NCBI GenBank assembly: GCA_963697895.1
Contig: OY969100.1
Span: 1,920,001-1,984,000 of the forward strand
DNA length: 64,000 nt
Origin: an uncultured Methanomicrobiales archaeon
Lineage (GTDB): Archaea; Halobacteriota; Methanomicrobia; Methanomicrobiales; Methanospirillaceae
Direction: 5' to 3'
Shown here one piece after another: positions 5,826-56,510 of the stretch. How positions within the stretch are numbered: the stretch's first letter is position 1; each line of letters opens with the position of its first letter. A program made the translations under genes and the position numbers. Below the pieces are notes generated by a model. The model searched no databases. It was not told where the DNA came from and saw only the letters and a program-made list of their open reading frames with translations.

Positions 5826-7428
5826 TTACTCGCCAGGGTTTTCCCCTTCGCAGATGACTGCAGTTACGGTCAGAAAAACCGGCCCCCGTACGTCTATCTT
5901 CTTTTTGGTGTCCGTGATGAACCGGACTGCAAATTCATCGATTCGCAGGTTGATATCGCTCGGAAGTTTGGCCATTTTGACCTGAACAGTTGTATCTCTC
6001 CCACATCGGGCAGCATCCTCGATACGGGCTGCGGCAAGGGATGCAACAGCATCAAGATAGCTGATCCCGGTATCGATCCCGTTCGTTCTGACTTCTGCCC
6101 ATTTCTCTGTGTCCGGGACTCCCAGAATCGCACCCTGGTACACATAAATCCGGTTAAAACAAGCGGGTCCACACAGTTTTGTATTGGATTCCGGCTCCTG
6201 AACGGTGACTTTTAGCGGTATTCCCAAGAGCTCCCCGCACCATGCATCGAACGAACAGGGGCCTGGTGCATCCGCGTGTTCCCTCGCCGTTTCCCTGATG
6301 GAGGCAGCGAGGTGCATACCCGTCCCGGTAACCGGCTCCTCACGGTACCTGATTGCCCGAGCGATCTCGAGATCGGTCATCACCTTCGGAAAGAATTGCG
6401 GATACGAGAGCTGACGTACGTCCTGCGAGCCGTATGCAATCATTGCAAGCCGTTCCACGCCAAGCCCGAGGTTCATGACCGGAATTTCGATATTGTACTC
6501 TGCAAGTGCAGATGGGGAATACATCCCGAATGTAGCAACCTCGACCCATTCGTGTACCGGGTGCCTGGCATAGACCTCGGTCTGCGTGTCCGGAATATAA
6601 TATTTGGAGCGCTTTTCGTCAGGCCTGAATCTGAAGTCTGTAAACCCGAATGCAGACAGGAGGGCCTCACTCACGGCTTTTCCCTCCTCATTCGTCACAT
6701 CCTCCCCGGCAACCACACATGAGGCGGAGTGGTAGCTCATCAGCCTCGTGGGACCCTCCTCCTGTTCGCGTCGGAAACAGCGGTCCACCGAGAAAAGGCG
6801 GAGGGGCAGTTGTCTTTTGTCCCAGATGGCACCCAATGTGATGAACCACCCGCTCGTCATATGACTCCTGAGCGTATTTCGGGAAGACTCGGGTGCAAGA
6901 GCCTGGAATTCGGGGAAGACGGAATCCAGAATGTGTACTACACGGGCATCATTCACCGCGAGGACCGTTGCAAGTTCATGAACCAGATCATCGCCATCGA
7001 TGGCCGACTTTTTATACGCATGGAGCGTTTCCCGGAGCCGTTCTTCGGTTTCAATGCTCATTTCCCTGCCGATCAAGGCGTTTATCTCGTCAAGGTTCTT
7101 TCTTGCGATACCCACATTGGGGCGGGGAAGCCCGCCGAGGTAAAACACCCGGTCGAGTACCGCACTTGCTTCCGGGCCGAATTGACGGTAGACCTCCTGC
7201 TCCTCCACGATAACCGGATTGCAGTATTCATCGAAACCCAGGGACAGGTAGGTGTCTCGGAGCCTGTTCACCATGGCAAATACCGGATGCTCGGCCGCCC
7301 TCCGGTATGCCAGTCTGAGGATACCGGTTCCCCCTGCGGGGCGGGGTCAAAACCGATTGTCCCTCATACCATGCCTTTTCGAAGTCCTCTTTCGCCAGTT
7401 TTTTGAATGTTTCTCCTTTGAACCTCAT
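5826..7428 (-). CDS. sepS: O-phosphoserine--tRNA(Cys) ligase (SepRS), one +1 frameshift at ~7314 (probable sequencing error)
   Basis: N-terminal ORF MRF...DFEKAW joins the main ORF ([25 protein letters not shown]) on deleting T7314, giving [13 protein letters not shown]. Confidence 0.93.
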
Positions 7429-8318
7429 GCATGCCGCTCCAGACAGATCACCCGGGAGAGCGGGTTCTCGTCCCTGATCCGGTAATCGGTGCAGGACGCG
7501 ATCTCCTCGGCGAATGACCGCACATGGTCATGCCCGGGCATATGATCCCGGGTCAGTCGTTTTCTACTGTACCCCAGAAACATATATCCCTTCACTTCAA
7601 CAAACGAGGCACCTGAATCCTGCACCAGCCGGCCGTACCCTCCAGGATCATGATCATTGAGCCCCCGGACCAGCGTAATACGGATCGCAGACCGGCGGCT
7701 TCCCAGGAGTCCCAGGCTTTCCCGGACAGCATCCCACGTATCAGTGACCGGCCTGCAGATCTGGTTATAGGTCATCCGGTCAGGAGCAGCGAGTGAAACA
7801 TACAGCTGGAAGGGTGCACACCGGCGAAGGACAGATGGGCGGGTTCCATTGCTGACGAGAAAGGTGGTGTAACCCTCTTTTGTCAGGAGATCGATCAGAC
7901 CGGGAAGATTTTCATAGAGCGTGGGTTCTCCCGAAAGGGATATCGCGACATGGCAGGGATCAAGTGCCTCCGAGAATCGTTCTTCAGTCACGTACGGGGA
8001 GACTTTATACCCTGAGAGTGCCTTTTTCTGCAGCGCTCTGATCCCTCCGACGATCTCCTCCGGAGAACAGGGGGTCTCTTCGGACATCTCGTGCTCGAAA
8101 GATCTCCAGCAGAACAGGCACCGCTGGTTGCAGCGAAGAGTCGGGGTCATCTGGATACACCGGTGGCTGATCACCCCGTAGAACTGATGCTTATAACACA
8201 TTTCCCCGCCGGTGAGTGCCCTCTTACACCAGAGACAGGGTTTTACGGCGGCGGTAGCACCGGCCTTTACGAATTGATACCCCTGTTTCTGCAGCGCTTT
8301 ACATGGTCCGGATGGCAT
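7425..8318 (-). CDS. taw1: 4-demethylwyosine synthase Taw1/TYW1 (radical SAM)
   Basis: CYKHQFYG, SHRCIQMTP, CNQRCLFCWR, AISLSGEPTLY, EVKGYM. Confidence 0.93.
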   Translation of the reverse strand: MPSGPCKALQKQGYQFVKAGATAAVKPCLWCKRALTGGEMCYKHQFYGVISHRCIQMTPTLRCNQRCLFCWRSFEHEMSEETPCSPEEIVGGIRALQKKALSGYKVSPYVTEERFSEALDPCHVAISLSGEPTLYENLPGLIDLLTKEGYTTFLVSNGTRPSVLRRCAPFQLYVSLAAPDRMTYNQICRPVTDTWDAVRESLGLLGSRRSAIRITLVRGLNDHDPGGYGRLVQDSGASFVEVKGYMFLGYSRKRLTRDHMPGHDHVRSFAEEIASCTDYRIRDENPLSRVICLERHA

Positions 8319-18531: not shown

Positions 18532-19712
18532 ATGGATGACAGGATCGTTTCTCTGGTGCGGTGCACGGAATATCAGGCTGAAGAAGTTCGCCGGTCGGTG
18601 CGGGATGCAATCGACCTGATCGGCGGGATAAAACGTTTTATCTCCCCGGGAGATCGTGTCCTCCTCAAACCCAATCTCCTCCAGGGCCTCTCACCGGACC
18701 ACTGTGTCACCACGCACCCTCTTGTGGTCTCCGCGGTCGCAGCGCTGCTCAGGGACTACGACTGTGAGGTGGTGATCGGAGACAGTCCCGGGGGGGAATC
18801 CTCTACAATCCGGCAAGTCTCGAACGGACGTACCGGCAGGCAGGATACGATATAATTGCGAAAGAACCCGGAATCCGGCTGAATATGGATACGTCCTGGA
18901 CTGCCACCGCCAATCCGGCGGGGGTTCTGGTAAAACGATTTCCGATTATTAATCCCGTGCTTGTAGCGGACCGGGTCATCGTTATTTCAAAGGCAAAGAC
19001 CCACCTGTGGACCCTCATGAGCGGAGCCGGAAAGAACCTCTTCGGGGTTATCCCCGGCCTGGAGAAACCGGCTTTCCATTCCCGTTTCCGGGATGACGCA
19101 ACCTTTTCACAAATGCTCCTTGACCTGAACGGGCTGATACGTCCATCGCTCCAAGTTATGGATGCGATCGTGGGAATGGAAGGAAACGGCCCTCTCTCCG
19201 GCATACCAAGGAAGATCGGTGCGATCTGTGCAAGCCCCTCGTATCTGGCGATGGACTTTGTTCTCGCACGGCTGATAGGGATTGAACCGTCTGAAGTCCC
19301 TTTTATCCGGGTTGCGATGGAAAATGGACTCTATCCCGGGAATACCCGTTGCATCAAGACGATAGGAGAAGAGCTGGAGGATCTGATCGTCCCCGATTAC
19401 CGGAAGCCTTCGACATATCTTGGTACCGGAAAGGGTATTCGGAAAAATGCCGCGCTTGCGCTCGTCCAACGGGCAGGAAAAGTCTATTCCCTCCGTCCAT
19501 CCGTGATATCCGCCCGATGTTCCCGATGTGGCAAATGTACCATGATCTGTCCTGTGCAGGCGATCGCCCTTGGGGGGAAGGGAGCCATTATCGACCCGGG
19601 CCGATGCATTCGTTGCTATTGCTGCCACGAGATGTGCACGGAGGGGGCAATCGAACTGAAACGCGGTGTTGCCGGTAAGATCATTGCCCGCTGTTTCGGG
19701 ATGGATGAATAA
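18532..19712 (+). CDS. DUF362 protein with C-terminal 2x[4Fe-4S] ferredoxin domain, -1 frameshift in G7 run 18790-18796
   Basis: VLLKPN, TTHP, GDSPG, KTH, MDAIVGMEGNGP, two CxxCxxCxxxC motifs. Adding one G joins ORFs 18532 and 18885. Confidence 0.88.
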
Positions 19713-22036: not shown

Positions 22037-22901
22037 TTAGATATAGGGGTTCCGGAGCCCCTTCCCGACACCAAAGGACGCTCGTTCCTCGAGGGTCTTC
22101 TTATTCTTGGTGATCTTCTCGGTCGCAAGCTTGGTCACAAGCTCGAGACCCGGTTTCACCTGTTCGATCGGTTTTGTCTCGAAACAGCCTGCAGCGACGG
22201 CCTTTGCCCAGACACTGTCTCCCTTCTTAGACCGGACAAAGACAGTGCTCCATCCGTCGGGGCTACCGACCGATCCGGTTGAGACATCGGCCCATTCTGC
22301 CACATAATCGAGGCAGACATGGTCTCCCGGCTGGTTGTACTTGTGGGTGACCTTGAGCGGAAGCCCGACAACGTTGCCACGGTCGGTTATAACCGTGAAC
22401 TTGCCCTTTCCGATCTCCATCTTCTTGACGGATTCCATCTTTACACCGGCATGATCTTCCACGAGCTGGACGATGCTCTGGTAGGGGAAGTTCTCCATGC
22501 AGAAAATACCGAGCACTAAGGCGATCTTATCGGGGACATCCCGCATCCCGATCGGATAAATCTGAGCCTTTCCGGACCGCCTGGACCTGGCAGGGGACGC
22601 CGACGATACCGACCTTGTCGAGGCCGAAGCTCCGTGTCGCTTCCTTCAGGAAGGAGACGCTCGGGCATATATTGTACCGTGTTCCCCGGGATTTCATCAG
22701 GTCCTCTTTGGTCATTGCAACCATCGGCCGCGGTCTCCAGGGCTCGTCGCTTGGTCCTGCGACGATTGCACCATCAATGATGCCCTCTTCGAGAGCATAT
22801 GCAAAGAGCGTCGTGACGATTCCGCCATCCTGAGCGCCCTTCAGAATATCCTTATCGGTGCTTCGTGCTGATACACACATCTTGTATTTACCGAGTACCA
22901 T
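22037..22901 (-). CDS. frhB: Coenzyme F420 hydrogenase beta subunit, +1 frameshift at ~22567
   Basis: [17 protein letters not shown]...RKAQIYPIG (after repair), [20 protein letters not shown]. Confidence 0.93.
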
Positions 22902-24261: not shown

Positions 24262-25630
24262 TCACTGCAGGAGTTTCTGAGCCACTATCTTCCTGTCCTC
24301 ATCGATGACAATCATATGGGTTGCACATGATACACAGGGGTCGTACGCCCGCACTACCATCTCTGCGAGTCTGCCACGGGGCACCCACCAGGGCGCGGCT
24401 GCAGGTTGCAAAGTTCCAGGTCGTCGGAACCAGCAGGGTATAATGCTGCACTTTGCCGTCCTTGACCTGGGCGATATGGACGTCCGTTCCTCTCGGGGCT
24501 TCATTTGCCGCCCACCCGATGGAACCGTCACCCTGGGGGATGTGGTCAGCGAGTACCTTCCCGTGGGGGTCCAGCGCATCGAGCGCGTTGATCATGGTAT
24601 AGAGACAATCCGTGTACTCCATCTGCCGGGCAACATGCTGGCCGATGGTTCCCTTCTCATCGAATCCCTTGAATTTCACCAGGCGGGCGCGGGGACCGAC
24701 TTCTACCGGTGCACCATCGTACATCGGCACACCAGTGCAGGCCTCCATCTGGGGGTTTGCGACGGTGCCTACCGGAGACGTGCCTCCGACAGGGTAGTTC
24801 GGGTCTGCAAGATCGACAGTGACTTCGCCCATATACCAGTCCCATGGCCGGGTTTCCTTAAACCGCTCCAGTGCCCAGGTCGGATTCTCCGAGTGGCTGG
24901 TGGTTCCATAGACGGGGTCCGTCGCCATATATCCCTGGTCGTGGTATCCGAGGTTCTTCGGGATCATGATCTTCTTCCCGCCGACATCTGTCCAGTCGCG
25001 CTTCTGGAAGTTGCGCAGCACGGCGATCATGAACTCCATCTGTTCATGCGCGAGGACGACTCCTTCCTTGGCGAGATCGTACATCTTCTTCTTGGCGAGC
25101 GGGGAGACGTTCCGGTACATACCACCGACACGGGGGTTGCTCGGGTGTACCGCTTCTCCGCCTGCAATCTGGGAGACCGTCTGAGCGATCTCACGGAGCC
25201 TCTGGATACGTTTTGCGACCGACCGCACCGGCTCTGCCGGTGTGAACGGGTTGATCTTCGTCTCCGTTCCCGGGACGTAAAAGTCGGGGAGGATCAGGAT
25301 ATTATGCAGTGCAATGCTGTGCAGCCTGTTAGCACACTGGAGGATCACCCTCAGGTGCCGTGCATCCTTCGGATACCAGCACTTGATGGATGCCTCCATT
25401 GCTTCGATACCAGCAAGGGTGTGTGCCACGGGGCAGATACCACAGACGCGGGACGCAATCTTTGGCGCCTGCTCCATGGTCTTCCCAATGGCAAGCTTCT
25501 CGACTCCTCTCACGGGAGTGATGGAGAGCCAGTTACCAACCTCAACGATACCCTCGTCGTTGACCTTCAAAACAAGTTTTGAATGTCCCTCATGTCTCGT
25601 GGTTGGGGAAATCTCTACAACTTTCGACAA
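24262..25630 (-). CDS. frhA: Coenzyme F420 hydrogenase alpha ([NiFe] large) subunit, +1 frameshift at ~24370
   Basis: TRHEGH, RVCGICP, APRG, VPT. The C-terminal [12 protein letters not shown] lies in a second frame and is joined by deleting T24370. Confidence 0.96.
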
Positions 25631-38742: not shown

Positions 38743-38792
38743 TGAAAAAGCCAGGAAACTGGGAGATCGAGTCACGTAAAAAAAAGAATTTT

Positions 38793-39050: not shown

Positions 39051-39053
39051 AAT

Positions 39054-39215: not shown

Positions 39216-39262
39216 GAATATACTCCATTGAACGATTCCTTATAATCTCTTCCCGGGAACAC

Positions 39263-39852
39263 TTAAAAGCTGGCACTGACCACAGTTCCCGGCGTTTGTT
39301 CCCCGCGAAGTACCGCGTTCACTCTTTCAATAAACCGGCCGTTTACAATCGTTGTGAACACGTTATTCCGGAGGACAAAGGGGATGAGACAGGGGTCTAC
39401 TTCGCTGCAGCAGAGAGGGTCACTAACATGCCGCAGGAGAGTTCCTCCTGATCTGATCCCATCTACGGATTTGAGAAGAATAAGCGGCTTTCCGAGTCGA
39501 TGAGCCACCCATGCGGCGATCGTATCGGATGTCACGTCCCACCGGTGAGGTAAGGGATCATCCCTGCGTAAGGCGGCATAGGGAAGGAACACCTTCACAT
39601 CATCCGGTTCACTCAGTTCAGTGGTGGTATTCATCCCATGAGCCGATATATACCAGCCATATTGCTCCATGGCTGCAATGGCCATCCAGTGTGCAGGGTC
39701 ATCACCGATGCTACAATGCCGGACCTCTTCTGCGAACCTCCCTCCGCCGGGGATAATGAGAAGAGGGCGTGCCTGTCTCATGAGAACCGGAATCAATGTC
39801 GGGATCATCCCCATCAAGCTCCCCCCAATTTTACAACGTACGGCTCCATCAT
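39263..39852 (-). CDS. mfnE: Amino-acid-kinase family protein, MfnE-like (methanofuran biosynthesis), -1 frameshift in run 39821-39826
   Basis: Repair gives MMEPYVVKLGGSL. IIPGGGRFA, HWMAIAAMEQYG, WDVTSD, KSVDG. Confidence 0.8.
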
Positions 39853-39901
39853 CACCGGATCTTTTTCATCAGGTTAATGTCCTAGCGACTAAATCTTTTC
39901 T

Positions 39902-41570
39902 ATGCGTCTGATCACCCTCATTTTTTGCCTTTTTCTCCTTATTCCCGCTGCATCGGCGTTAGCCCTGGTGGAGTGCTGTCCCGATCCCTATCTCCCGGAA
40001 GACCCCGATGAATACGTAGTACTGGAGGGAAACGGAACACTGGAAGGAGTGACGGTCTCTGATGGGGAAGGTGGGTTCCGGTTCCCGCCCGGGACAGAAA
40101 TCCAGGGCCGTCTCACTATCGCCAGGAATGGGGATGCATACCGGTTAAGTCATGGCGAGTATCCCGATTATGAATGGTACGATACCTTACCTGAAGTTCC
40201 GGATGTGATACGTGGAGGGACGCTCCGGCTGGGAAATACGAATGACAACCTCCAGCTCTTTGTAGACGGTCACCTTCAACAGGAGGTTGCCTGGCCACAG
40301 GATGTAAAACCCCGAGAAGGGCAGGTACATTTTTTCGAGGATAATACCTGGGATCCGAGAGTTTTTCTTATCGGGCAATCGGCATTCGATACGCAGACCT
40401 ATGAGAATGTTTCGGGTATCGCATTCGTCTCTCCAGACTGCTCCTCCGATGTGTACGAAGAGGTGATCGATGAATCGAGTGAGCGGCTCCTGGTGAATGT
40501 TTACGAATTCACACACCCTGGAATGGCAGATGCGTTCATCCGCGCCCATGACCGGGGGGTTTCGGTCACCGTCCTCCTCGAAGGGGGGCCCGTCGGGGGG
40601 ATCAGCCCTGAAGAGAAAGCAATATGCTGGAAGATGAACCAGAGCGGAATTCCCGTATTCCAGATGACTACCCTCGGTGGAGTTCACGCACCGTACCGTT
40701 ACAATCACGCTAAATACATCGTAGCTGATACCCGGAGCCTATTAATCACCAGTGAAAACTTTAAAGAAAGCGGATTCCCGGAACCCGGAGAGGGTGGGAA
40801 CCGCGGATGGGGAGTTTACCTCGAGAGCGTACCGGTTGCGGAGTATTTTACCCGTGTATTCGAATATGATACCGGGGGTGGCTGGATTGCTCCCCTTCCC
40901 GGCATATCGGGAACGGCTGAAGATAGTTATCATGAGAACCGCCAGGTGGAGTTCCGTCCGGAGAGGTTTTCCGGGGCAGAGGTGACCCCGGTCCTGTCTC
41001 CCGATACCAGCGGATTGGTGCTCCGGCTGGTTGAATCCGCAGAGAAGACCATCGACATAGAGGAAGCCTATATCAGCAATACATCCAGCCAGGAGTTAAA
41101 CCCGTATCTCGGGGCTGCGATCAACGCTTCGAGACGCGGGGTCAATGTCCGGGTACTTCTCGACTCGTACTGGTTCAATGTGGAAGATGAGAATGACAAT
41201 GACGAGATGGTTAGCTATATCAACCACATTGCACGGGTAGAAAAGTTGCCGCTTGAAGCCCGGTGTGCCGGACTTGATGCGGCAGGTCTTGAGAAGATCC
41301 ACAATAAAGGCGTGATCGTTGACGGTGAACAGGTTCTCATCAGCAGCATCAACTGGAATACGAACTCGCCAACCTTCAACCGGGAAGCCGGAGTCATCAT
41401 CGCTCATCCGGGGGTGGCCCGGTATTTCGGCCGGGTATTTGAAGACTGACTGGAAAGCATCATCAGGATCGGGATCGGCGGATAATCCGATTGATTATTT
41501 GAAGATAGGTCTTACAATTGGGGCAGTACTTCTCCTGATCCTGTTCTTTGTCTACCGGAGGACCCGGTGA
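39902..41570 (+). CDS. Phospholipase D superfamily protein (archaeal cardiolipin-synthase-like), +1 frameshift at ~41445
   Basis: Signal/TM N-terminus, two HKD motifs (HAKYIVAD, HNKGVIVD), NRE. Repair gives FEADW...TM-RRTR C-terminal anchor. Confidence 0.85.
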
Positions 41571-41677
41571 GGACGGGTGAGAAGCCCTCTCTTTGGGTCC
41601 CGGGACTTACCGCTACATGGATAATACCCATCCGTATGATATGATACGGTAATCACCCGGATGGAGGAAATGAAAAA

Positions 41678-42213: not shown

Positions 42214-42280
42214 ACTCTATTGTTAACGCTGTTAACACTTAAAGGTGTCGCTTTATAGGAGGATCGCTTATGGTACAGAC

Positions 42281-43694: not shown

Positions 43695-43800
43695 CGATAC
43701 CCCCTTCTCATGCGATCCCAGACCCGGGGATTTCCCAGGAAGGATAGAAATTCGTTTCTCTTATAGTAGTCATTTGGTAAAACCTATCCCGTTCTTCATC

Positions 43801-44625: not shown

Positions 44626-44858
44626 CGTCAACTACAATCACCCCCATTGAATCGGGTGGAAAGTCCGCATGGGCGCATTTCTCATATCGATGTGGCAAAT
44701 CAGGGAAATCCGAAGGTTTTCCGGCACGAGTCTTCTCCCATATGCTCCTATTCCCTCTCGTATCCTCATCCCCTGGATAAATCATTCATTCGTGATGGCT
44801 GACCTTGTTCACCCAATCTTACACAACTTATCCGCTTTATATTTCTATCCGAATCTCC

Positions 44859-45617: not shown

Positions 45618-45783
45618 TGTACAGAGATAGCAGTATCATTGGTTAAGCATTTCTCTCCAATACCGGATTGACCGGAGAATAGTCACATCGTACGGGAAGG
45701 GATGAAAAAAATAAGGAATACTTCCGCTAAAACCGTACAATTATGATACTCCCCGTAAAAGGATACTTTATTTTCAGGTTTTG

Positions 45784-47038
45784 ATGACCGCTATCGAGAA
45801 CATACTTGAAGCCGTGCGAGGGAAAAAGGTATATCTGAGGACATACGGCTGCACGTATAACGCGGGCGATAGTGTCAAATTATCCGAAATTTTGCGGTCG
45901 CAGGGCTGTACATTCACAGACTCTTCTGAAAAGGCAGATGCTATTATTGTCAATACCTGCACCGTAATTGGTCCTACCGAACGAAAAGTGCTCAAATATC
46001 TGAAGCAGAACCGGGACCGGCAGACTCTTTGTGACCGGATGTATGCCGATCGTCCAAATGGAAGAGATCGAAGGGGTGTGTACCCCGCAGATAATTACCC
46101 CGGATGAGATACAAGATCTCTATTGTAATATCCGGACGGTTCCCCGGGCTCCGATCGGGATCGTTCAGGTTGCCACGGGATGCAGAGGCACCTGTTCCTA
46201 TTGTATAACCAGGCGGGCACGGGGGAAACTAAAAAGTTTTCCCCGCCATGATATACTCGACCAGATACGCCGTTATATTCGCGAGGGGGCTGTCGAGATC
46301 CGTCTGACGGCGCAGGATGCAGGTTGTTGGGGTGCCGATCTCGGGACTGGCGGCCTCCCCTCACTTCTGCACAGTATCACGCGGATTCCCGGGGACTTCC
46401 GGGTGAGATTGGGCATGATGAATCCATGCGGGATAGCTGACCAGATCGATCCCCTCATCCGGGAGTTGGAACACGAGAAGATGTTTAAGTTCATTCACTG
46501 TCCCCTTCAGTCCGGATCTGACAGGATACTTGAAGATATGAAGAGAGGCTACACATCAGGAGAATTCATCAGGATCGTTGAAGCTTTCCGCGCAGCATTT
46601 CCTGAGATGACTCTTGCAACGGACGTGATCATCGGGTATCCAGGTGAGACTCCGAAGGACCTGTCGGCAACCGTCAGAACGATCGAGACAGTCCGTCCTG
46701 AAAAAATACATATCACCCGGTATTCCCACCGGCCGGGTATTCCCCCGCATCCGGCCGGAGATCTCACCGATTATACCAAAAAAATCCGTTCACGATACCT
46801 GAATTCAGTTGCGAACCGGGTATATCATGAGAACAATGCCCTGTGGGTCGGAAGGAGGGTACCGGTGCTGGTTACCGAACGGGTCAGGCCGGATTCGGTT
46901 ATTTCACGAACGCCCTGCTATCGTAACGTTGTCCTACAGGGGGATCTATCACCGGGATACACGGGATGTGCATTCATCCAATCGGAGCACTTACATTATT
47001 TCAGAGGTGAGCTCGTCCCCGATGCAAGATGCGAATAG
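45784..47038 (+). CDS. tRNA methylthiotransferase (archaeal MtaB/MiaB-like), +1 frameshift at ~46024
   Basis: TYGCTYN, NTCTV, VTGCM, CRGTCSYC, QSGSD, C-terminal TRAM-like region. Confidence 0.9.
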
Positions 47039-47279
47039 GGCTAGTCTTGCCGTTCACCGACAACAACGCAGGGTGTTCGGGCGTTTTATAATGGCTTTTT
47101 ATAGAGCATCATATAGTTTATATCATAAATAGATACAAAACCAAATGTTCCGCATATAGATTGAAAAACCGTGTAAAAAGGGTTCTTATCATCGGAGGAT
47201 GAGATGAGGCTGAAACCAGGTGAGGCGGTGAACAGAATCTCTATACCACGGGAAAGGTTGGGTCACAGAAGGTAGCAAA

Positions 47280-47855
47280 ATGGATGAGATTGAACAGGGA
47301 TTTTCGAAACTGATCGAAAAGATACAGGAAAAGGAAGCGAAAACCGGTGAGCTTGCAGCGGAGATCCGGAACCATGATGCCGAACTGCTCAGGCGCATGG
47401 CAGAATCAGCTATCCCGGTGATAAGAAAAGTTGGTCTGAATCTGCTTGAGAAGGGAAAACAGGATCCAAAAGGGGAGCTTTATGAAACCACCTTCTATTC
47501 TGACAAGGTAATCGTGCTCGGGAAGACAGACCCGCTCCCGTACCGGCCCGATGATCCCGGCAAGAAAGTAATGGATCAGTTCTGCATTCTGACCGAAGAG
47601 GGGGTCTTTCAGGAAATGATGTATAGCTCCGATGGGTATGTCCTCGATTCATATCGTCAACCGTTATCTGCGGAGGCAGCGCTCAACATCTATGGGTACG
47701 ATGTCATGTTCATGGTATACCGTGCAATGAAAGATTATCTCGATGCCGAAGAAGCACTTATCGAGGCCCTTGGGAGGGTTATTGAATATATATTCGGAAA
47801 AAAAGAGAACGGCGGTCAGGAACAGAGATCAGCCGGATTGGCGAAAAAGGAGTAA
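47280..47855 (+). CDS. Hypothetical protein with N-terminal coiled coil
   Basis: Long clean ORF with protein-like composition (YRPDDPGKKV..QFC). No recognised family. Confidence 0.75.
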   Translation: MDEIEQGFSKLIEKIQEKEAKTGELAAEIRNHDAELLRRMAESAIPVIRKVGLNLLEKGKQDPKGELYETTFYSDKVIVLGKTDPLPYRPDDPGKKVMDQFCILTEEGVFQEMMYSSDGYVLDSYRQPLSAEAALNIYGYDVMFMVYRAMKDYLDAEEALIEALGRVIEYIFGKKENGGQEQRSAGLAKKE

Positions 47856-47871
47856 AAAAATGATTTATCAG

Positions 47872-48327
47872 TCATTTCCATTTAAATAGGGGAAACATCG
47901 GTTTCAGGAGATCTTCCTCACCCGGATGTAAAGAGGACAATAGAGAGGTTGTTGAATACCGGCCGCCCCTTTCATTCTCGAATATTATTACCGCTTTCAC
48001 ATCTGGAACCATCGTACCGATTCGATAGGGGAACTCCTCCTCCTCTCGCAGTTCGGGAATGTCAAATTCGATATTCAGAGGCACAAGAGAGACATGTATC
48101 TTTTTTGCCGTTGCATTGCCCTGGTTTTTTATCCGAATTTCCTTTGAGTCATCCGTGAGATGGGCCACGAGATCAGGGTGGAACCGCGAGTCCTGCATGA
48201 TGAGGAAGGACATGACAAGAGCGATAACGATTACCAGTACGATCAGACCGAGATAGATATTGATGATCAGCAGAATGAGACTTACAAGAACTCCCGCACC
48301 TATCAGCATCTTTTCTCTGGTTTCCAT
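47872..48327 (-). CDS. Hypothetical membrane protein (2 TM + beta-rich domain)
   Basis: Start METREK, two TMs, IKNQGNA motif, C-terminal KPMFPLFKWK. Confidence 0.75.
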   Translation of the reverse strand: METREKMLIGAGVLVSLILLIINIYLGLIVLVIVIALVMSFLIMQDSRFHPDLVAHLTDDSKEIRIKNQGNATAKKIHVSLVPLNIEFDIPELREEEEFPYRIGTMVPDVKAVIIFENERGGRYSTTSLLSSLHPGEEDLLKPMFPLFKWK

Positions 48328-48562
48328 ACCGATCGTTGATCTCCGCGTATTAAGTGGATAATAACAATGGGCCCGATGTGATTCGAACACATGACCTCCC
48401 GGTTATCAGCCGGGCGCACCACCTGGCTATGCTACGGGCCCTTCAAGAGTTTCCTTATAGGGTAACCCTGCTGGGTTTTTATAAGTTGTGAAATGAAGGC
48501 CCGAAACAGTAGATTAAAAGCACATGATTGTTGTACCTTTCGGAAAGGAATGGGTATGGAAT

Positions 48563-50332
48563 ATGGATCGACGATATCTCCTTGGAAATGATGCGATTGC
48601 ACATGCATGCCTTGAATCGACGGTCGATTTCGTGAGCGGGTATCCCGGTACTCCTTCATCTGAGGTGATCGATACTCTGCGAGGAATGGCTGAACGGCAT
48701 TTTTACGTTGAATGGTCCGTGAATGAGAAGGTTGCCCTTGAAAATGCGCTTGGTGCTGCATGGTGTGGTATCCGTGCTCTCTGCACGATGAAGCATGTCG
48801 GCCTCAATGTTGCTGCGGATCCGCTGATGACCAGCGCATATACCGGAGTGACGGGCGGGCTGGTGATCATGAGTGCTGATGACCCGTTTGCCCATAGTTC
48901 ACAGAATGAACAGGATAGCCGGATATATGCACACTTTTCGGGAATACCCTGCCTGGACCCGTCCAGTGTCCAGGAGGCTCATGACATGATGCGGGATGCG
49001 TTTCCGCTCTCCGAAGAGCTCCGGCTTCCGGTACTCTTCCGCCCGACGACTCGCATCTGTCATTCGAAGAGTGATACGATCCTTGGAGATCCCGGCCGGA
49101 ACGTGAGAAAGGGGGTGTTCCATAAAGATCCACGACAGTACGTCGTTATCCCGGCGCATACCCGGGTCCTTCACAAGCAACTGAATGAAAAACAACCGCA
49201 TATTAAAAAAAGACTCGTCGAACTGGGATTCAACCGGTATCTGTTGAAGGGGACCCGGGCGATCATTGCCAGTGGCATCGCGGCATCCTATGTCCAGGAG
49301 GTCCTGCCCGATGAGATGTCATTTGCGCAGATTGGCGCCTATCCCATCGATCAGGACTGGCTCCGATCATTCATACGTTCACATGATGCCGTCCTCGTGA
49401 TTGAAGAGGGGGCTCCGGTCGTAGAGGAAATAGTACGGCAGGTCGCCGGCGTTATTCCTGTCTATGGTAAGATGACAGGGCACGCACCCGGTGAGGGGGA
49501 GTTATCTCCGCAGGCATTTTCCCGGATTATGGCATCCTGCGGGTTTTTACCGAAACACCAGTATCCGGAGACGAGACCCGTTCAGGATCTTCCGCTCCGC
49601 CCCCCCATACTCTGTGCAGGGTGTATGCACCGGTCGGTGTTCTACGCCATGAAGAAGATCTTCCGGGATGCTGTTTATCCCAGTGACATCGGATGCTATA
49701 CCCTGGGATTGCAGCTTGGGGCGGTGGATACTACCATCTGTATGGGGGCATCTATCACGGTGGCGAGCGGTATGTGCCATTCCGGCGAAGAACGGGATGT
49801 TGTGTGCACGATAGGGGACTCCACATTCCTTCATTCGGGAATGACCGGACTTCTGAATGCGGTGTATAACGGAGCAAACATGACAGTAATCATCCTTGAT
49901 AACCGGATTACTGCGATGACAGGTCATCAGCCAAATCCCACAACAGGATGCACGGCATGTGGCACGCCTGCAGCACCGGTCTCCCTTGAGGCAATCTGCC
50001 GGGCCTGCGGTGTTTCACTGGTCGAAACGATTGACCCCTATGATATTACATCGCTGACCACAGCATTACAGGATGTAAAAGTGCGTCGGGGGGTGAAGGT
50101 GATTATTGCACGACAACCCTGCGTGATAACCGCGAGGCGTGCAGGAATAAAAAGGGGCAGATATGAAGTCGATCCTGAAAGGTGTGCAGAATGTGGGATC
50201 TGCATCAAATTCGGGTGCCCCGCTATCGAGAGGCACGAAAACAAAGCGTACATCACCGATCTATGCAGTGGATGCGCAGTCTGCGCGCAGATCTGTCCGT
50301 CGGGTGCCATAGCACGGGAGGGTCTCCGATGA
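48563..50332 (+). CDS. iorA: Indolepyruvate:ferredoxin oxidoreductase alpha subunit
   Basis: GYPGTPSSE, NEKVA, MKHVGLN, LCAGC, SDIGCY, GDSTF, C-terminal ferredoxin motifs. Confidence 0.95.
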   Translation: MDRRYLLGNDAIAHACLESTVDFVSGYPGTPSSEVIDTLRGMAERHFYVEWSVNEKVALENALGAAWCGIRALCTMKHVGLNVAADPLMTSAYTGVTGGLVIMSADDPFAHSSQNEQDSRIYAHFSGIPCLDPSSVQEAHDMMRDAFPLSEELRLPVLFRPTTRICHSKSDTILGDPGRNVRKGVFHKDPRQYVVIPAHTRVLHKQLNEKQPHIKKRLVELGFNRYLLKGTRAIIASGIAASYVQEVLPDEMSFAQIGAYPIDQDWLRSFIRSHDAVLVIEEGAPVVEEIVRQVAGVIPVYGKMTGHAPGEGELSPQAFSRIMASCGFLPKHQYPETRPVQDLPLRPPILCAGCMHRSVFYAMKKIFRDAVYPSDIGCYTLGLQLGAVDTTICMGASITVASGMCHSGEERDVVCTIGDSTFLHSGMTGLLNAVYNGANMTVIILDNRITAMTGHQPNPTTGCTACGTPAAPVSLEAICRACGVSLVETIDPYDITSLTTALQDVKVRRGVKVIIARQPCVITARRAGIKRGRYEVDPERCAECGICIKFGCPAIERHENKAYITDLCSGCAVCAQICPSGAIAREGLR

Positions 50333-50913
50333 ATGGAAGTTTTGATGTCCTGATCGTGGGCATAGGCGGGCAGGGAACCATCCTAGCCTCCAATATTCTG
50401 GGAGAGGCATGTATCATTGAGGGCAGGCCGGTCCGTGGAGCCGAAACCCACGGTATGGCCCAGCGGGGAGGATCCGTGGAGAGCCATATCCGCATCGGTG
50501 GTAATCTCGGCCCGCTGATCGCGCCGGGGACGGCAGACCTCATCATTGCCTTTGACCTCCTTGAAGCGGTCAGGTATTCGCATTATCTTAGCAGTGGTGG
50601 AAAAATGATCGTAAACAGGCATCTTGTCGTCCCGACTTCGGTCTTCATTCAGGGAGTGGCGGCTCCAACCGTTGAAGAACTAGAACAGAGCCTGGCGGGC
50701 CACTCTCCCTGTCTCATCGATGCCGATGGGATCGCGAGCGATGCAGGGAGCCCACTCGTCCAGAATGTCGTCATGATCGGGGCTGCTTCCCGGTACATTC
50801 CTCTCGCTCCACGCTCGCTGGAGGAATCGATACGCCGGCTGGTCCCGCAAAAAACCATCGAGATCAACATCCGGGCATTTGAGATGGGAGTTAATGCGGA
50901 GGATGTGTGCTGA
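50329..50913 (+). CDS. iorB: Indolepyruvate:ferredoxin oxidoreductase beta subunit
   Basis: GIGGQG, ETHGMAQRGGSV, NVVMIGA, NIRAF. Confidence 0.95.
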   Translation: MNGSFDVLIVGIGGQGTILASNILGEACIIEGRPVRGAETHGMAQRGGSVESHIRIGGNLGPLIAPGTADLIIAFDLLEAVRYSHYLSSGGKMIVNRHLVVPTSVFIQGVAAPTVEELEQSLAGHSPCLIDADGIASDAGSPLVQNVVMIGAASRYIPLAPRSLEESIRRLVPQKTIEINIRAFEMGVNAEDVC

Positions 50914-50930
50914 TCACGTACGAGGGAGAG

Positions 50931-51653
50931 ATGGATGCAATACAGCTCGGGCGATTTGCACTTGATACGATCTATCAAGGAGACGCCCTCCATCTCCTTG
51001 AGGAGCTTCCCGGGGGGTGCATCGACCTCATCATCACCGATCCCCCGTTTGCGATCGATTTTCGCTCACAGCGACTGAATTATAACCGTACCGGCGCTCA
51101 TGTCATTGATGGGTATCGCGAGATCCCCTGGCAGGAATATGGGCAATTTACCCACCGATGGTTGAAACAGGCTGCCCGAGTGCTTGCACCGGATGGGAGC
51201 CTTTACGTATTCTCCGGGTGGAACCGGCTGATCGATGTCCTGTCGGGCCTTGAGGGGGCCGGGCTGACGACGATCAACCATCTTATATGGAAATATCAGT
51301 TCGGGGTGTTCACCCAACGGAAATACGTCACCAGCCATTATCACATCCTTTATGCGGTGAAGGATCCCCGGCACTACCGCTTCAATAAAATTGAACATTA
51401 TCCTGAGGACGTCTGGGTGATCAACCGCGAGTATTGGAAAGGGAAAGCAAAGACACCGACGAAGTTACCATCCGCATTAATCAGGAAGATCCTTGGCTTT
51501 TCGAGTTGCCCGGGAGATATTGTCCTCGATCCCTTCGTCGGCTCTGGAACCGTTGCGGTGGTATGTAAAGAGATGGATCGGCATTTTCTGGGATTCGAGA
51601 TGGTGGAAGATTATTGCGCATTTGCAAAGGCACGGCTTGCAGAGATGGGCTAA
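50931..51653 (+). CDS. Orphan DNA amino-methyltransferase (N4-C/N6-A, beta class)
   Basis: Catalytic TDPPF precedes the SAM-binding DPFVGSGT (beta order). No adjacent endonuclease gene. Confidence 0.92.
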   Translation: MDAIQLGRFALDTIYQGDALHLLEELPGGCIDLIITDPPFAIDFRSQRLNYNRTGAHVIDGYREIPWQEYGQFTHRWLKQAARVLAPDGSLYVFSGWNRLIDVLSGLEGAGLTTINHLIWKYQFGVFTQRKYVTSHYHILYAVKDPRHYRFNKIEHYPEDVWVINREYWKGKAKTPTKLPSALIRKILGFSSCPGDIVLDPFVGSGTVAVVCKEMDRHFLGFEMVEDYCAFAKARLAEMG

Positions 51654-51748
51654 CGGGGATAACCGGTATTGGGCAACAGTAACCCGCCAGGCCGCCCTGG
51701 ATCGTACATTGTGAGCCTTGGCCCAGCCGGAGGTACTCGAAAAACAAG

Positions 51749-51834
51749 CGCTAAGGGGGAGATTTGAACTCCCGAGGGGCAAACGCCCCACAGGCTTTCC
51801 AGGCCTGCGCCCTACCGGACTAGACTACCTCAGC
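51749..51834 (-). tRNA. tRNA-Ser(GGA)
   Basis: GCTGAGG acceptor, loop CT-GGA-AA, long variable arm GGGGC/GCCCC, T-loop GTTCAAATC. Confidence 0.95.
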
Positions 51835-51980
51835 AGAGAATGGTACCCACAATCATTGCACGGGGATTTTTTTAACACTATCCATCAGATGCCCGGTGAG
51901 AACACATCCTTGCACCAACGAGCGAGGGACAGGGTCCGGATCAATCCCTTGGGGTATAGGATTGAACGGACAATTGTTGT

Positions 51981-52946
51981 TCAATCAGGGCTAAATAGCC
52001 TGTTTTTCGTGCCGCTCTTCCAGTGCCTCGGATAAGTCTCCGGCTTCATAAATACAGAACGCGGGGCGATTACAAGACCGTGTTCCCCGGGCCGGAACGA
52101 TGAAGATGGGACGAGCGCCTCACCGATGCAGACGAGTTCGCCCCTTTTCGAGAAAACCGACACCATATCCTTCTTCTGGAATGGTGCCATTTCGATCACA
52201 CCGACACCGGCGAGAGTCGCCCCATGGCAGAGTGCATCGATTGACGCATCGGTGACCACCACGCGGGGGAGCTCAGATACCCCTTCCTCGACCGGGAGGA
52301 TGAACTGCCGGAGGGGTTCCGGGAACCCCTCTTCATACCCGCACACCCATGCATCCCGGAGCTCATGGAGGGAATGGGATATGTGTTCATCGAAGCGACC
52401 GGAGCGGGTCCGCCTGAGTTCCTGCATATGGGCACCAGTCCCGAGTGCGAGCCCGATATGATGACAGAGGGAGCGGATATAGGTACCTGCGTCGCACCGC
52501 ACCCGGAGCAGGACGAGCTGCCCCTCCATGTCGAGCAAGTCGATACGGGAAATGGTCCGGATACGTAACCGCCTGGCGACGGCACTCCTTCGGGGAGGAC
52601 GTTGGTATATTCTACCGGTAAATTCCCGGAGTACCTCCTCGAGCCGCTCCCGGGAGACGCTATGGTGCAATCGCATCAGGCAGACATACTCTTTTTCCTG
52701 ATTGAGCAGGATCGGGGCAAGCCGGACCGCATTCCCTATCATAATCACAAGTACCCCCGAGACCCCCGGATCGAGCGTGCCGGAGTGGCCGGCCGGAACA
52801 TCCAGGAGATCTCTTACCCAGGACGTTACCTGATGGCTCGACGGCCCCCGGGGCTTGTCGATTACGATGATGCCGGAACCGGGCCGTACAGGCCTGGCTG
52901 GACTTTCAGTTCGTGCCCGGGGATTATTATTGGGTGCGGTTTTCAT
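51981..52946 (-). CDS. cbf5: H/ACA pseudouridine synthase Cbf5 (TruB family)
   Basis: DKPRGPSSH, GHSGTLDP, KEY, QRPP, GTYIR, ELRRTRSG, PUA domain. Confidence 0.95.
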   Translation of the reverse strand: MKTAPNNNPRARTESPARPVRPGSGIIVIDKPRGPSSHQVTSWVRDLLDVPAGHSGTLDPGVSGVLVIMIGNAVRLAPILLNQEKEYVCLMRLHHSVSRERLEEVLREFTGRIYQRPPRRSAVARRLRIRTISRIDLLDMEGQLVLLRVRCDAGTYIRSLCHHIGLALGTGAHMQELRRTRSGRFDEHISHSLHELRDAWVCGYEEGFPEPLRQFILPVEEGVSELPRVVVTDASIDALCHGATLAGVGVIEMAPFQKKDMVSVFSKRGELVCIGEALVPSSSFRPGEHGLVIAPRSVFMKPETYPRHWKSGTKNRLFSPD

Positions 52947-53644
52947 ATAATTCCGGATCCCTCCTGTTCTTCCAATACGTACCGGTTCAGAACCTTCAGT
53001 GTTCCTTCCAGTGAACCGTCACCAACCAAATCAGGCGCAATTCCTGCGTCCCGCATCACTCTGGCGGTGACATCCCCGATGGCCATCACGAGAAGGTCAG
53101 GGTTCCGCTTCCATATCGCCCTCCGGAAGGATTCCGCACTGGTGAAGAGGATTCCCTCCGCATCATGCAGTTCGAGTTCCTCGTCTGTCGGAATAAGTGC
53201 ATAACACCGGATTTCAACGGGAATACCCCCGGCTTGTGTGATAGATTCAATCAAAGCACTATTAGGCAGATCGGCCCGGGGTATACCTATCCGCTTTCCG
53301 TGTATCCATATTCCGAGATATGGTACAAGATCGCGCGAGTAAAAACTCGGCAGGATTTCACACGGGATACCGGCTCTCTCCAGGGCATGTGCCGTCTGGG
53401 GTCCGATCGCGATCACCCGGGGCCATTGGGGGAGCAACGGAGCGATGATCGCGGCAGGAAGGGCACTCGCAAAGAAAATACAATCAAATGCACCTTCAGC
53501 CACCATATCGACAAATACACGCACCCTGTCCTGATGAATGATAGCTTTGAGCGGAGACACACTAAAACACGAATGGCCGTATTTCGCGCAACGAACTGCA
53601 TCTTGAGCATCTTTCCCCTTTAAGCGGGTAACTGCAATCATCAT
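52943..53644 (-). CDS. hemD: Uroporphyrinogen-III synthase
   Basis: IAVTR, AIGPQTA, PRA, FTSA, AIGDVTA. Confidence 0.88.
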   Translation of the reverse strand: MMIAVTRLKGKDAQDAVRCAKYGHSCFSVSPLKAIIHQDRVRVFVDMVAEGAFDCIFFASALPAAIIAPLLPQWPRVIAIGPQTAHALERAGIPCEILPSFYSRDLVPYLGIWIHGKRIGIPRADLPNSALIESITQAGGIPVEIRCYALIPTDEELELHDAEGILFTSAESFRRAIWKRNPDLLVMAIGDVTARVMRDAGIAPDLVGDGSLEGTLKVLNRYVLEEQEGSGII

Positions 53645-53721
53645 GGGTTTCCAGATCCTTATCCGTGCACATTATTTATTTCGAATGATTTATCTTCATC
53701 CCTCCCGATTTTCCCGCTGAT

Positions 53722-54933
53722 ATGATAGGGGTCTTCATCGGAACACTCATTGGCGTCGTGATCGGCACGGTGAGCGGTCTTGTACCGGGAATACACGCCA
53801 ATTCAATGGCAGGGGTGCTCCTGGGACTGCAGGGCTTGTTTCTGGCATTCATAGGTCCGGATGCTGTTGCTGCAGCCCTCTTTTCTGCTCTGGTCACCCA
53901 TACATTTCTTGATATTATTCCCAGCACTTTTCTCGGTGTGCCGAACCCGGATACTGCGCTCTCGGTCCTTCCGGCCCATGCTCTGTGCCTGGAAGGAAAG
54001 GGGGAGGAAGCCGTTCGTATCGCGGCACTGGGAAGCGCGTGTGCAGCGATCATCGCGATTCCCCTGTCCGTCGTCCTTCTGGGTATAATACCTGTTTTAC
54101 AACCTTTTTTCGACTGGTGGATAGGTATTTTGATCATATGCGTCGTCGGGTATCTGATTGTCACCTGTGAGTCGGCCGGATGGGCATTGGCCGTCTTCAT
54201 CGTATCCGGTATTCTCGGTGTATTTACGATCCATTTCGGGTATGTCGGCTGGCATACCCTGGGGGCGTCGGGAATCCTGATGCCCCTCCTCTCCGGTATG
54301 TTCGGGATCTCGGTGATGATCTTTGCATCATCAGATCCCGTGCCGGATCAGCGGTTTTCCGGGATCCATATGGATAATCGCGCGATCAGGAAGGGAACTC
54401 TCCTTGGGACACTTGCCGGCACTGTCGTGGGTTGGCTGCCCGGGCTTTCGAATGCAACAGCGAATGCGGTCCTTGCATCTGTAGCAGGCTACGAACGGGA
54501 CAGACGTGGGTATCTCCTTGCTACGAGTGCGGCAAACACCGCGAATGCGTTCATCGGGATTGCGGTACTTTATGCCATAGCCCGGATGCGGAACGGTGTC
54601 ATGGTTGCACTGGCCGCAATTGACCCGCCACCCATGCAGGAGATGCTTATTGTCGGCAGTATCGCCGCTTGTGTGGCATATCTGCTCACCATCAGATTTT
54701 CAAGATCTGCACGTTTTCTGAACGGCCTGAACAGCCGGAACCTGAATTTTGCGGTGATCGGATTCGTAACCCTCCTGGGATTCATCATTGCCGGGCCGTT
54801 CGGTCTGTTAATATTGCTCCTTTCTACCCTTGTCGGGATCGTCCCGCGAATGGTCAATATTCCCCGGGTTTTTTGCATGGGTGCGATTATGCTTCCGGTC
54901 CTGCTCTATTCCTTCGGATTTGCAGCGATCTGA
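53722..54933 (+). CDS. Tripartite tricarboxylate transporter TctA-family permease (archaeal stand-alone type)
   Basis: Repeated motif GLVPGIH / GWLPGLS, IPSTFLGVP, multiple TMs. Confidence 0.85.
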   Translation: MIGVFIGTLIGVVIGTVSGLVPGIHANSMAGVLLGLQGLFLAFIGPDAVAAALFSALVTHTFLDIIPSTFLGVPNPDTALSVLPAHALCLEGKGEEAVRIAALGSACAAIIAIPLSVVLLGIIPVLQPFFDWWIGILIICVVGYLIVTCESAGWALAVFIVSGILGVFTIHFGYVGWHTLGASGILMPLLSGMFGISVMIFASSDPVPDQRFSGIHMDNRAIRKGTLLGTLAGTVVGWLPGLSNATANAVLASVAGYERDRRGYLLATSAANTANAFIGIAVLYAIARMRNGVMVALAAIDPPPMQEMLIVGSIAACVAYLLTIRFSRSARFLNGLNSRNLNFAVIGFVTLLGFIIAGPFGLLILLLSTLVGIVPRMVNIPRVFCMGAIMLPVLLYSFGFAAI

Positions 54934-55046
54934 TCCGCTGGCAACCATAACCCCGAAGGGGATTGGTGAACAGGTGGCGGAAAAGACTGATTCTATGAAT
55001 CCAACTCGGGTTCATTATATAATAATCCACATGCAACGATCGAGTA

Positions 55047-55914
55047 ATGCCAACCTACTGGTTTGGAGATGCAGGTGAACAGGGCTGTGTGCCTGTTGCC
55101 CGGGAGCTGGAAGCACGTGCGAGGCACATGAAATCACGTATAGTCTTGAGTAAATCCTTCACGCCCCTCGAATGGCATCAGGCGGTATCATGCGGGGTAG
55201 TGAAAGATCGTGCCGATTATCTGGACCAGCTGCGACAGCTTTGTTTCCATCTGGCAGAGCAACGAATTATCGCATACTGTCGGGGTCGCGATATTGAACT
55301 GCTCCAGGTGGTGCGTACCCTTGATCAGCTGGATGAGGCGATAAACCTCCTCACCGGAAGAGCTGTTGAATGGTACCGGACCAGAAATCCCTCATTCAGC
55401 CGAAAGTACCGGTGGCTCCCCGGAAGGAAAATGGTCGAAACTATGAAGCGGGATACATTCAGGGACGCTCAGACAGTTTAGCGAAGAGATCGACCGCCTC
55501 TCGGATCTCCGCCGTACCCTGATGTATGAGGTATCGGGAAGGGCAGAACAGGTACTCCCCAATTGCAGCGCTCTCATCGGTGGCCTGGTGGCTGCCCGTC
55601 TGATGGAACGGGCAGGAGGTCTCGAGCCACTTTCCCGAATGCCTGCGAGCGCCATACAGGTCCTCGGGGCCCGTTCAGCACTTTTCTCTCATATGAGATC
55701 CGGCACGCCGCCACCAAAGCATGGGATAATCTTCCAGCACCGTCGTGTCCATTCGGCAGGAAGGGATGTCCGAGGAAGGGTTGCACGCATATTGGCGGCA
55801 AAACTCGCCATCGCAGCCCGGGTTGATTACTACCGTGGGGAACTGGCACCCGGGTTTGTAGCGAAAGCACAGGCGGCCATTGATCGTGCAGGGGTGAAAA
55901 ATGCACTGGATTGA
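55047..55914 (+). CDS. nop5: C/D sRNP protein Nop5 (Nop56/58), +1 frameshift at ~55466
   Basis: RAVEWY, PNCSALIG, MPASAIQVLGA, PPKHGIIF, RGRVAR..AAKLAIAARVD. Confidence 0.92.
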
Positions 55915-56510
55915 GGGGGTGCTCGTGTCTCCGGGTGAACCGGGCGTCTATGGGGAAAGAACATTACAGGGTTACCGTGTATGGGATCCATACCGGAGCA
56001 AACTTGCGGCTGTTTATCATCTCGGTCACGGAGTTGAACTCGATGTGACCATGAGAGTTCTCTATCTTGGGGCCGCTCACGGTACCGACCGTTTCCCATG
56101 TCGCAGATTATTCAGAATGCGTATATGCCATTGAATTTGCTCCAAATCCCATGCAGGATCTCCTGATGGTCGCGCAAAGGAGGAGGAATATCATCCCGGT
56201 CATGGCGGATGCGGCCCATCCCGAAGAGTATGCCGCCCTCGTAGAACGGGTTGATCTCGTGTACCAGGACGTGGCGCAGACGGACCAGGCCGAAATAGCA
56301 ATTAAAAACGCCATCTTTCTCCGCGACGGGGGGAAATTTATTCTGATACTGAAAACGCGAAGCGTGGATGTGCGAAAAGATCCAGAAGAAGTACGGAGTG
56401 AGGCAAGCCAAAAACTGATAAATGCTGGTTTTTCCCTCGAATCCGAATTCTGGCTTTCACCGTACCATCAGGATCACGCGGTCCTGATTTCCTCCGTAAA
56501 CCGGGAGTGA
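55901..56510 (+). CDS. flpA: Fibrillarin-like rRNA/tRNA 2'-O-methyltransferase, +1 frameshift at ~56086
   Basis: YGE, WDPYRSKLAA, LYLGAAHGTTVSHV (after repair), NIIP, YQDVAQ, PYHQDH. Confidence 0.93.

Follow-up and report, generated by a model that had tools for sequence, protein, structure and literature searches.

Extra-base frameshifts in an uncultured archaeal genome concentrate at AGCT and GTAC, two palindromes reported as N4-methylcytosine motifs of its clade

In a 64,000-nucleotide stretch of DNA from an uncultured archaeon of the Methanomicrobiales, nine genes each carry one single-base frameshift. The stretch, referred to here as the window, comprises bases 1920001-1984000 of a single contig of 2,091,725 bases (GCA_963697895.1, contig OY969100.1), and the interrupted genes include those for SepRS, two subunits of the F420 hydrogenase (FrhA and FrhB), fibrillarin and Nop5. 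This raises the question of whether the genes are truly broken and, if they are not, why the faulty bases lie where they do. An initial annotation, made from the sequence alone, had proposed that the genes are intact, that most of the insertions and deletions (indels) fall at the palindromes AGCT and GTAC, and that the organism methylates AGCT and possibly GTAC. The nine genes are indeed intact, and their frameshifts are errors of a long-read consensus, not mutations. The concentration of such errors at AGCT and GTAC is real and very strong across the genome. N4-methylcytosine (m4C) at the two motifs is the best explanation of this concentration; as a cause, methylation is something we infer, with a probability of roughly 0.78. 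By its FrhA fragment, whose nearest named genomes are Methanoregulaceae, Methanoregula and Methanolinea metagenome-assembled genomes (MAGs) at 80-85% identity, the genome is assigned to the Methanoregulaceae.

All eight strings that had been quoted as frameshift contexts are present in the window where they had been placed (Table 1). Pfam confirmed the identity of SepRS, FrhB, the NiFe hydrogenase large subunit (FrhA), the PLD-like protein, the radical SAM protein and fibrillarin, and returned an amino-acid-kinase-fold protein for the gene called mfnE, an assignment that is plausible; the N-terminal piece of nop5 had no Pfam match. The gene of the DUF362 family is split, with profile positions 1-48 in the open reading frame (ORF) at 18532-18855 and positions 81-199 in that at 18885-19712. 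The geometry of the two ORFs (window 18768-18855) demands an added base, putatively in a run of seven G.

Whether the indels belong to the organism can be read from independent assemblies. A run search found 20 public metagenome runs that hold part of the window, and the contigs of four of them, here X1 to X4, were compared with a stretch of 20 kb (window 37000-56900), outside which lie the sepS, frhB, frhA and DUF362 sites. X1 and X2 come from the same study, and X3 and X4 from two others. Because all four are available in contig form and one retains a trace of a transposase-library (Illumina-type) adapter, they are taken to be short-read assemblies. Their long pieces diverge from the window by about 1.5-2%, mostly by transitions (about 98% identity), and they therefore represent related strains rather than the source sample. 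Statements on these contigs refer to the indels listed; 26 further entries include a second gap in the nop5-spanning contig of X2.

Base 41445 of the PLD-like gene is absent from all four runs at full depth, and base 46024 of the radical SAM gene is likewise absent from all four, so that AG[A]CT becomes AGCT at both sites. In fibrillarin, the base following GTAC (56085) is absent from X1, X2 and X4, while X3 has no coverage there, in agreement with the extra base that had been proposed. Additionally, X1 (depth 12.5/12.5) and X4 (35.3/35.3) carry a C behind 39820, turning C6 into C7 beside AGCT, as had been proposed for the mfnE-like gene; X2 and X3 have no coverage at this site. Three of these corrected sites are backed by runs of three studies and the C run of the mfnE-like gene by two, and the prediction that short reads would lack the indels came true exactly at four of the five comparable sites, in strains of about 98% identity from other samples. 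Two further one-base differences between the window and the X1, X2 and X4 contigs, at 38758 and 51690, lie outside the nine genes and outside any AGCT or GTAC, and could be strain variation or errors in non-coding DNA.

These comparisons bear on the reading that the indels are real, whether as pseudogenes, as a mutation hotspot at AGCT or as programmed frameshifts. Such an origin would accommodate the non-random placement of the insertions and their coding-strand skew, yet it is highly improbable: the indels are absent from related strains in two to four runs per site, drawn from up to three studies, and at least 81 genes would have to be broken in this genome, including those for SepRS, the F420 hydrogenase, fibrillarin and Nop5. 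Furthermore, the sites share no common slippery context, and the orthologs in a relative are uninterrupted ORFs. The proposal that the genes are intact is thus borne out both by the contigs of related strains and by the relative's orthologs.

The positions of frameshifts throughout the genome were then needed from evidence independent of the motif. The nearest relative genomes share just about 75% DNA identity, and a nucleotide-level reference from relatives was dropped. The protein reference was the genome of a same-family relative in one contig of 2,174,862 bases, from which all 7059 stop-to-stop ORFs of at least 100 residues were used as tblastn queries against the genome of the window. Adjacent matches of one query with a switch of frame were taken as a candidate, giving 265 pairs in 171 clustered places, of which 138 were kept after 33 were dropped under the rule that both matches reach at least 40 bits with a consistent open-frame window between them. 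At each place, every single-base change was made where both frames are open, and the resulting protein was scored against its counterpart in the relative, a localisation that is blind to motif. Fourteen of the 138 were dropped, either because no repair position was valid or because the near-optimal positions exceeded 40, which left 124. For all 136 strand-collapsed 4-mers, it was scored whether a near-optimal one-base deletion creates the 4-mer, and the same position sets moved by 60-400 bases served as the control. Since some candidates are antisense-ORF artefacts, a coding filter was applied, under which the candidate frames must have the best coding potential of the six frames on both flanks; 43 of the 124 failed it. 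Further candidates in the window at 13986, 37570 and 39052 were among those rejected by this filter and are probably artefacts of this kind.

The 138 candidates comprise 94 places with an extra base and 44 with a missing base, and the 124 localised ones comprise 88 and 36, respectively. Before the coding filter, AGCT ranked first, being created in 27 of the 88 extra-base places against 3.0 in the control (z 14.5, reached in 0 of 500 control sets), and it was created or abutted in 37 against 5.1. GTAC was created in 13 of the 88 against 4.4 (1 of 500). Other high-ranking 4-mers, AACT, CAGC and GAGC, overlap AGCT, and GATC was not enriched (18 against 15.3 among the 88), nor were CCGG, GGCC and CGCG. 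The coding filter leaves 63 extra-base and 18 missing-base places. Among the 63, AGCT again ranks first, created in 26 against 1.8 (z 18, 0 of 1000) and created or abutted in 36 against 3.15 (z 20, 0 of 1000), and GTAC is created in 10 against 3.0 (0 of 1000), while GATC (9 against 5.5) is not significant. Sorted into classes, the 63 places comprise 36 at AGCT, 8 more at GTAC, 4 at CTNAG and 15 others; about 70% of credible extra-base errors therefore lie at AGCT or GTAC. The genome-wide tabulation that the initial annotation had suggested thus puts AGCT at the top of the 136 4-mers, with z of 14-20 and none of 500-1000 controls as high, and gives GTAC a z of 3-4.

For the window itself, the same procedure shows how much freedom the choice of base allows. 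The near-best repair sets of sepS (7313-7318, five positions tied as best), frhB (22565-22573, seven tied), frhA (24369-24373) and the radical SAM gene (46017-46025) hold 5-9 positions each and include the base that had been chosen; in frhA and the radical SAM gene, the best repair is the G or A of CA[GA]CT, and in fibrillarin it is 56085-56087. As these sets hold several positions, the exact base for sepS, frhB and frhA is not proven, and a search of metagenome contigs for same-species sequence gave a best match of 85% protein identity, which left the three sites short of single-base resolution. At nop5, the extra base had been placed in A(C)GCT at 55465-55469. This lies outside the near-best set, and X4 has a deletion at 55458 in three contigs instead of at 55466. 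None is listed there in X1 or X2, and the second gap of the nop5-spanning X2 contig is at a position outside the indels listed. A GTAC would arise from the removal of 55453, which ranks as near-best, not best. Five of the six AGCT assignments therefore stand, with 41445 and 46024 proven and sepS, frhB and frhA consistent, and the sixth, nop5, falls; the GTAC site of fibrillarin and the C run of the mfnE-like gene are proven as well. Of the nine frameshifts, seven are at or beside AGCT or GTAC and one is in an unrelated G run, as claimed, with the position of nop5 mistaken. The accompanying caveat, that there had been some freedom in choosing the base to delete, most of all for nop5, proved right for nop5.

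Could that freedom have produced the link to AGCT as a whole? Ten of the 1024 5-mers give AGCT by an internal deletion, and about a quarter of 30-base windows hold one; the nop5 assignment was wrong, and a reference-free scan showed no enrichment. That scan, of same-strand overlapping open frames, yielded 3779 windows, 583 of them past a coding-potential filter, and was abandoned in favour of homology. Its enriched 5-mers resembled ribosome-binding sites (GGAGG), indicating that most of its windows are ordinary gene junctions; AGCT-derived 5-mers numbered 120 against 115.7 expected, and AGACT and AGTCT 15 each against 8.7. Against free choice as the source stand the positions from motif-blind protein scores, with their z of 14-20 over shifted controls, and the two sites fixed to the exact base by contigs, by which it is already refuted and has next to no probability left.

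The errors have a defined anatomy. On the coding strand, the 27 AGCT-creating sites read AGACT (14), AGTCT (4), AGGCT (4), AGCCT (3) and AGCTT (2). The extra base stands between G and C in 25 of the 27 and between A and G in none, which places the insertion at the dyad of the palindrome, beside the cytosine of either strand. Where GTAC is clearly involved, the sequence is GTACC. In the missing-base class, runs of CCCC or GGGG, 4-7 long, are present in 14 of the 36 places against 5.3 in the control, and AGCT lies within two bases in 6 of the 36 against 1.4 (0 of 300); in several cases, a G or C run of five or six is directly followed by AGCT, as at the mfnE-like site. Homopolymers account for a minority of the errors (14 of 36 missing-base and 2 of 88 extra-base cases). 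A C precedes AGCT at 19 of the 27 error sites compared to 37% of all coding-strand AGCT, showing an added effect of context. Separately, extra-base frameshifts near genome positions 527482, 752249 and 1453399 share the context CA[TC]AGCT; an intact AGCT follows the best repair position at a distance of two to three bases, and the motif may have a second mode of error here.

Both motifs are known in the clade. In a survey based on REBASE, persistent groups of orphan m4C methyltransferases for AGCT, GTAC and CTNAG were reported in six of six Methanoregulaceae and Methanospirillaceae, the AGCT group also in six of six Methanoculleus, and N6-methyladenine (m6A, or 6mA) at GATC in 15 of 19 Methanomicrobiales (PMC10609329). 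In Methanospirillum hungatei JF-1, M.MhuIV (AGCT), M.MhuII (GTAC) and M.MhuI (CTNAG) are all described as m4C enzymes (PMC11033074). The occurrence of m4C at AGCT and GTAC in this group, which the initial annotation had taken as a premise, is therefore in print (PMC10609329, PMC11033074). Additionally, a nanopore motif-finder retrieved AGCT from the comparison of native with amplified M. hungatei DNA, according to its report, and the mark must therefore shift the pore signal (PMC10689673).

The pattern also resembles a known error class. As far as their available text describes them, methylation-induced nanopore errors recur at motifs, survive long-read-only polishing and vanish in short reads (PMC11610573, PMC11610603), as do the errors here, and in both the published cases and this genome the error pattern reveals the motif (PMC11610603). 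The published cases are mainly substitutions (C-to-T and G-to-A) at bacterial 5-methylcytosine (5mC) and 6mA motifs (PMC11610603), whereas in this archaeon one-base insertions occur at the centre of a putative m4C palindrome and were detected through broken genes only. The missing-base class, mostly in G/C runs of 4-7, can be likened to the homopolymer indels described for long-read assemblies (PMC9262707, PMC11649196), from which the present errors differ in that homopolymers are a minority and several of the runs directly abut AGCT.

In the favoured explanation, this Methanoregulaceae archaeon would carry N4-methylcytosine at AGCT and GTAC, placed there by orphan methyltransferases of the kind usual in its clade. 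Single-molecule signals would be disturbed at the modified base, and the basecaller or polisher would then add a base at roughly 1% of the sites. Most insertion errors lie either at the AGCT centre (AG^CT), where the addition is usually A or T, or immediately behind GTAC (GTAC[C]); most deletion errors lie in G/C runs, several of them abutting AGCT. The missing footprint of GATC would fit basecallers trained on Dam-methylated DNA.

The chief competitor is a weakness of the basecaller or polisher for the sequence context of AGCT and GTAC, which would act on unmethylated DNA as well. In its favour, about 1% of AGCT sites are affected, and the 5' flank matters, with C before 19 of the 27 error sites against 37% overall. 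It is nonetheless rather unlikely, given that the strongly enriched palindromes among 136 4-mers are exactly two of the reported m4C motifs of the clade (PMC10609329), that the other top 4-mers overlap AGCT, and that GATC, the m6A motif of the clade, is unenriched. Moreover, a universal error at AGCT finds no mention in the available text of the nanopore error literature (PMC11610603, PMC9262707, PMC11649196).

Several points weigh against methylation as the explanation. Methylation as the cause, the nanopore-like platform and the assignment of genes to marks are all deduced rather than observed. The methylation-induced errors in print are mainly substitutions, at least in the available text (PMC11610603), and no description of centre-of-motif insertions at m4C was found in the literature as far as it was accessible. 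CTNAG, the third m4C motif of the clade, is weakly enriched and confounded. With 4084 sites in the genome, AGCT shows no depletion (observed/expected 0.97), so that only about 1% of its sites are affected. The AGCT methyltransferase candidate described below was found in 8 of 25 sampled Methanoculleus species, which agrees poorly with the six of six of the survey (PMC10609329). Finally, the skew of the coding strand (AGACT 15 against AGTCT 4) is not predicted by a pure sequencing artefact.

This skew comprises 15 inserted A and 4 inserted T on the coding strand, with the PLD site included (binomial p 0.02, uncorrected), and the orientation is balanced on the plus strand of the genome. In the window, it is exemplified by the sites 7312-7316, 24368-24372, 41443-41447 and 46022-46026, and the frequencies of the flanking bases fail to account for it. 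C stands before AGCT at 19 sites and G after it at 7 on the coding strand, and the 5' C flank was ruled out as the cause of the skew (773 against 760 sites). If the skew is not chance, the two strands of genic AGCT, transcribed and non-transcribed, could differ in how they are modified or read, for instance through hemimethylation linked to transcription or through a second mark specific to one strand; we consider this quite improbable, but if true, the assembly errors of public long-read MAGs would become a source for finding such asymmetries.

As for CTNAG, it was considered as a third footprint and rejected: it scores in 12 of the 88 unfiltered places against 4.2, 6 of them free of AGCT and GTAC, a weak signal that overlaps the flanks of AGCT, and the genome shows no clear footprint of this clade motif. 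Elsewhere in the composition of the genome, CTAG falls far short of expectation (361 sites, observed/expected 0.41), and GATC (1.10) and CCGG (1.18) are slightly over-represented.

The same pipeline was applied to a 383,004-bp contig of another Methanoregulaceae MAG, which gave 30 extra-base and 13 missing-base frameshifts after filtering, or about 43 credible frameshifts at a density several times that of the window's genome. The outcome adds to the points against methylation, as AGCT is created or abutted in 6 of the 30 against 1.8 (3 of 500), a modest signal from a small and heterogeneous sample, and GTAC is not enriched among the 30. For these reasons, the contig was set aside as a replicate and lends little extra support. 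An unequal footprint between assemblies of the family is expected if chemistry, basecaller and polishing differ. Two frameshifts of this contig read GA[A]TC, which becomes GATC when the base is removed. Near 60242 of the contig and near 1860826 of the window's genome, apparent orthologs from the two independent assemblies share the extra-base frameshift GTA[CC]TGG, with the same local context around it.

Both the error class and the methylation of the clade have already been published, so the value of the result is practical rather than new biology. In this single-contig genome, at least 81 well-supported genes (of 138 candidates) are falsely broken, those for SepRS, the F420 hydrogenase, fibrillarin and Nop5 included. 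Such false breaks distort annotation, completeness estimates (93.85% here) and pseudogene counts, and about 70% of the extra-base errors can be found and checked at AGNCT and GTACC sites. The positions of the errors alone recover two motifs reported as m4C in the clade, suggesting that, for uncultured archaea, a deposited long-read assembly may be enough to read methylation motifs even when the raw signal is missing.

Which enzymes might place the marks can be considered from the methyltransferase genes. The genome holds five PF01555 genes above the curated cut-off and one C5 cytosine methyltransferase, and has no match to the Dam-type methyltransferase family PF02086. The translations of the PF01555 genes show the catalytic motifs DPPY, SPPY, SPPY, DPPF and SPPF, of which we take the SPPY/SPPF type to be usual for N4-cytosine enzymes. 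The 350-aa SPPY gene has orthologs at 65-71% identity in five of five named genomes (three Methanoculleus, one Methanoregula and one Methanolinea). At E<=1e-60, it was found in 26 of 27 members of its own family and 8 of 8 of a second family (orthologs of 65-72% in both) and in 8 of 25 Methanoculleus species, and in none of 22 and none of 26 in two other families. Owing to its reach into Methanoculleus, it is the best candidate for the AGCT methyltransferase, a tentative assignment from its phyletic distribution that would fit the published AGCT group. A candidate for GTAC or CTNAG, on similar grounds, is the 428-aa SPPF gene: its own family has it in 26 of 27 genomes, a third family in 10 of 10 and a fourth in 10 of 22, and it is all but absent from Methanoculleus. 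Orphan m4C methyltransferases described elsewhere, HG16 and HG18 (PMC10609329) and M.MhuIV and M.MhuII (PMC11033074), belong to the same clade and, as reported there, act on the same two motifs; the PF01555-type genes with SPPY or SPPF are likewise kept across the family, but unlike those enzymes, their specificity is presumed. The 248-aa DPPF gene, which lies in the window, has orthologs at 68-73% identity in one genome each of Methanoregula and Methanolinea and at 45-54% in Methanoculleus, and we would guess it to be a GATC m6A enzyme.

Table 1. Frameshift sites of the window and methyltransferase genes of the genome. Positions are those of the window unless marked as genome positions.
Feature	Position	Strand	Context
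SepRS (sepS) frameshift	7312..7316	-	AGTCT (coding strand AGACT); AGCT when the middle base is removed
DUF362/4Fe-4S gene break	18790..18796	+	G7 run; homopolymer type, no adjoining AGCT or GTAC
FrhB frameshift	22565..22569	-	AGCCT (coding strand AGGCT); FrhB_FdhB_C domain by Pfam
FrhA frameshift	24368..24372	-	AGTCT (coding strand AGACT)
Amino-acid-kinase-fold (mfnE-like) gene break	39817..39826	-	AGCT followed by C6; one C too few
PLD-like gene frameshift	41443..41447	+	AG[A]CT
Radical SAM (mtaB-like) gene frameshift	46022..46026	+	AG[A]CT
nop5 frameshift	55450..55461	+	Near-best repair set; best 55454 and 55456-55459
Fibrillarin frameshift	56082..56086	+	GTAC[C]
N6_N4-type DNA methyltransferase, 248 aa, DPPF	50907..51653	+	PF01555
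SPPY methyltransferase, 350 aa	genome 1884820-1885872		PF01555, 134 bits; N6_N4_Mtase domain
SPPF methyltransferase, 428 aa	genome 1658818-1660104		PF01555

Two other methyltransferase loci were observed in the genome. A 289-aa SPPY-type N4/N6 methyltransferase (genome 965298-966167) has no ortholog in the five named relatives, where the best partial identity is 44%, and it looks strain-specific. The sole C5 methyltransferase (337 aa) is flanked by proteins of 244 aa and 321 aa, both without an NCBIfam match, at genome 1077576-1081020, and this arrangement suggests that the locus may be a restriction-modification cassette.

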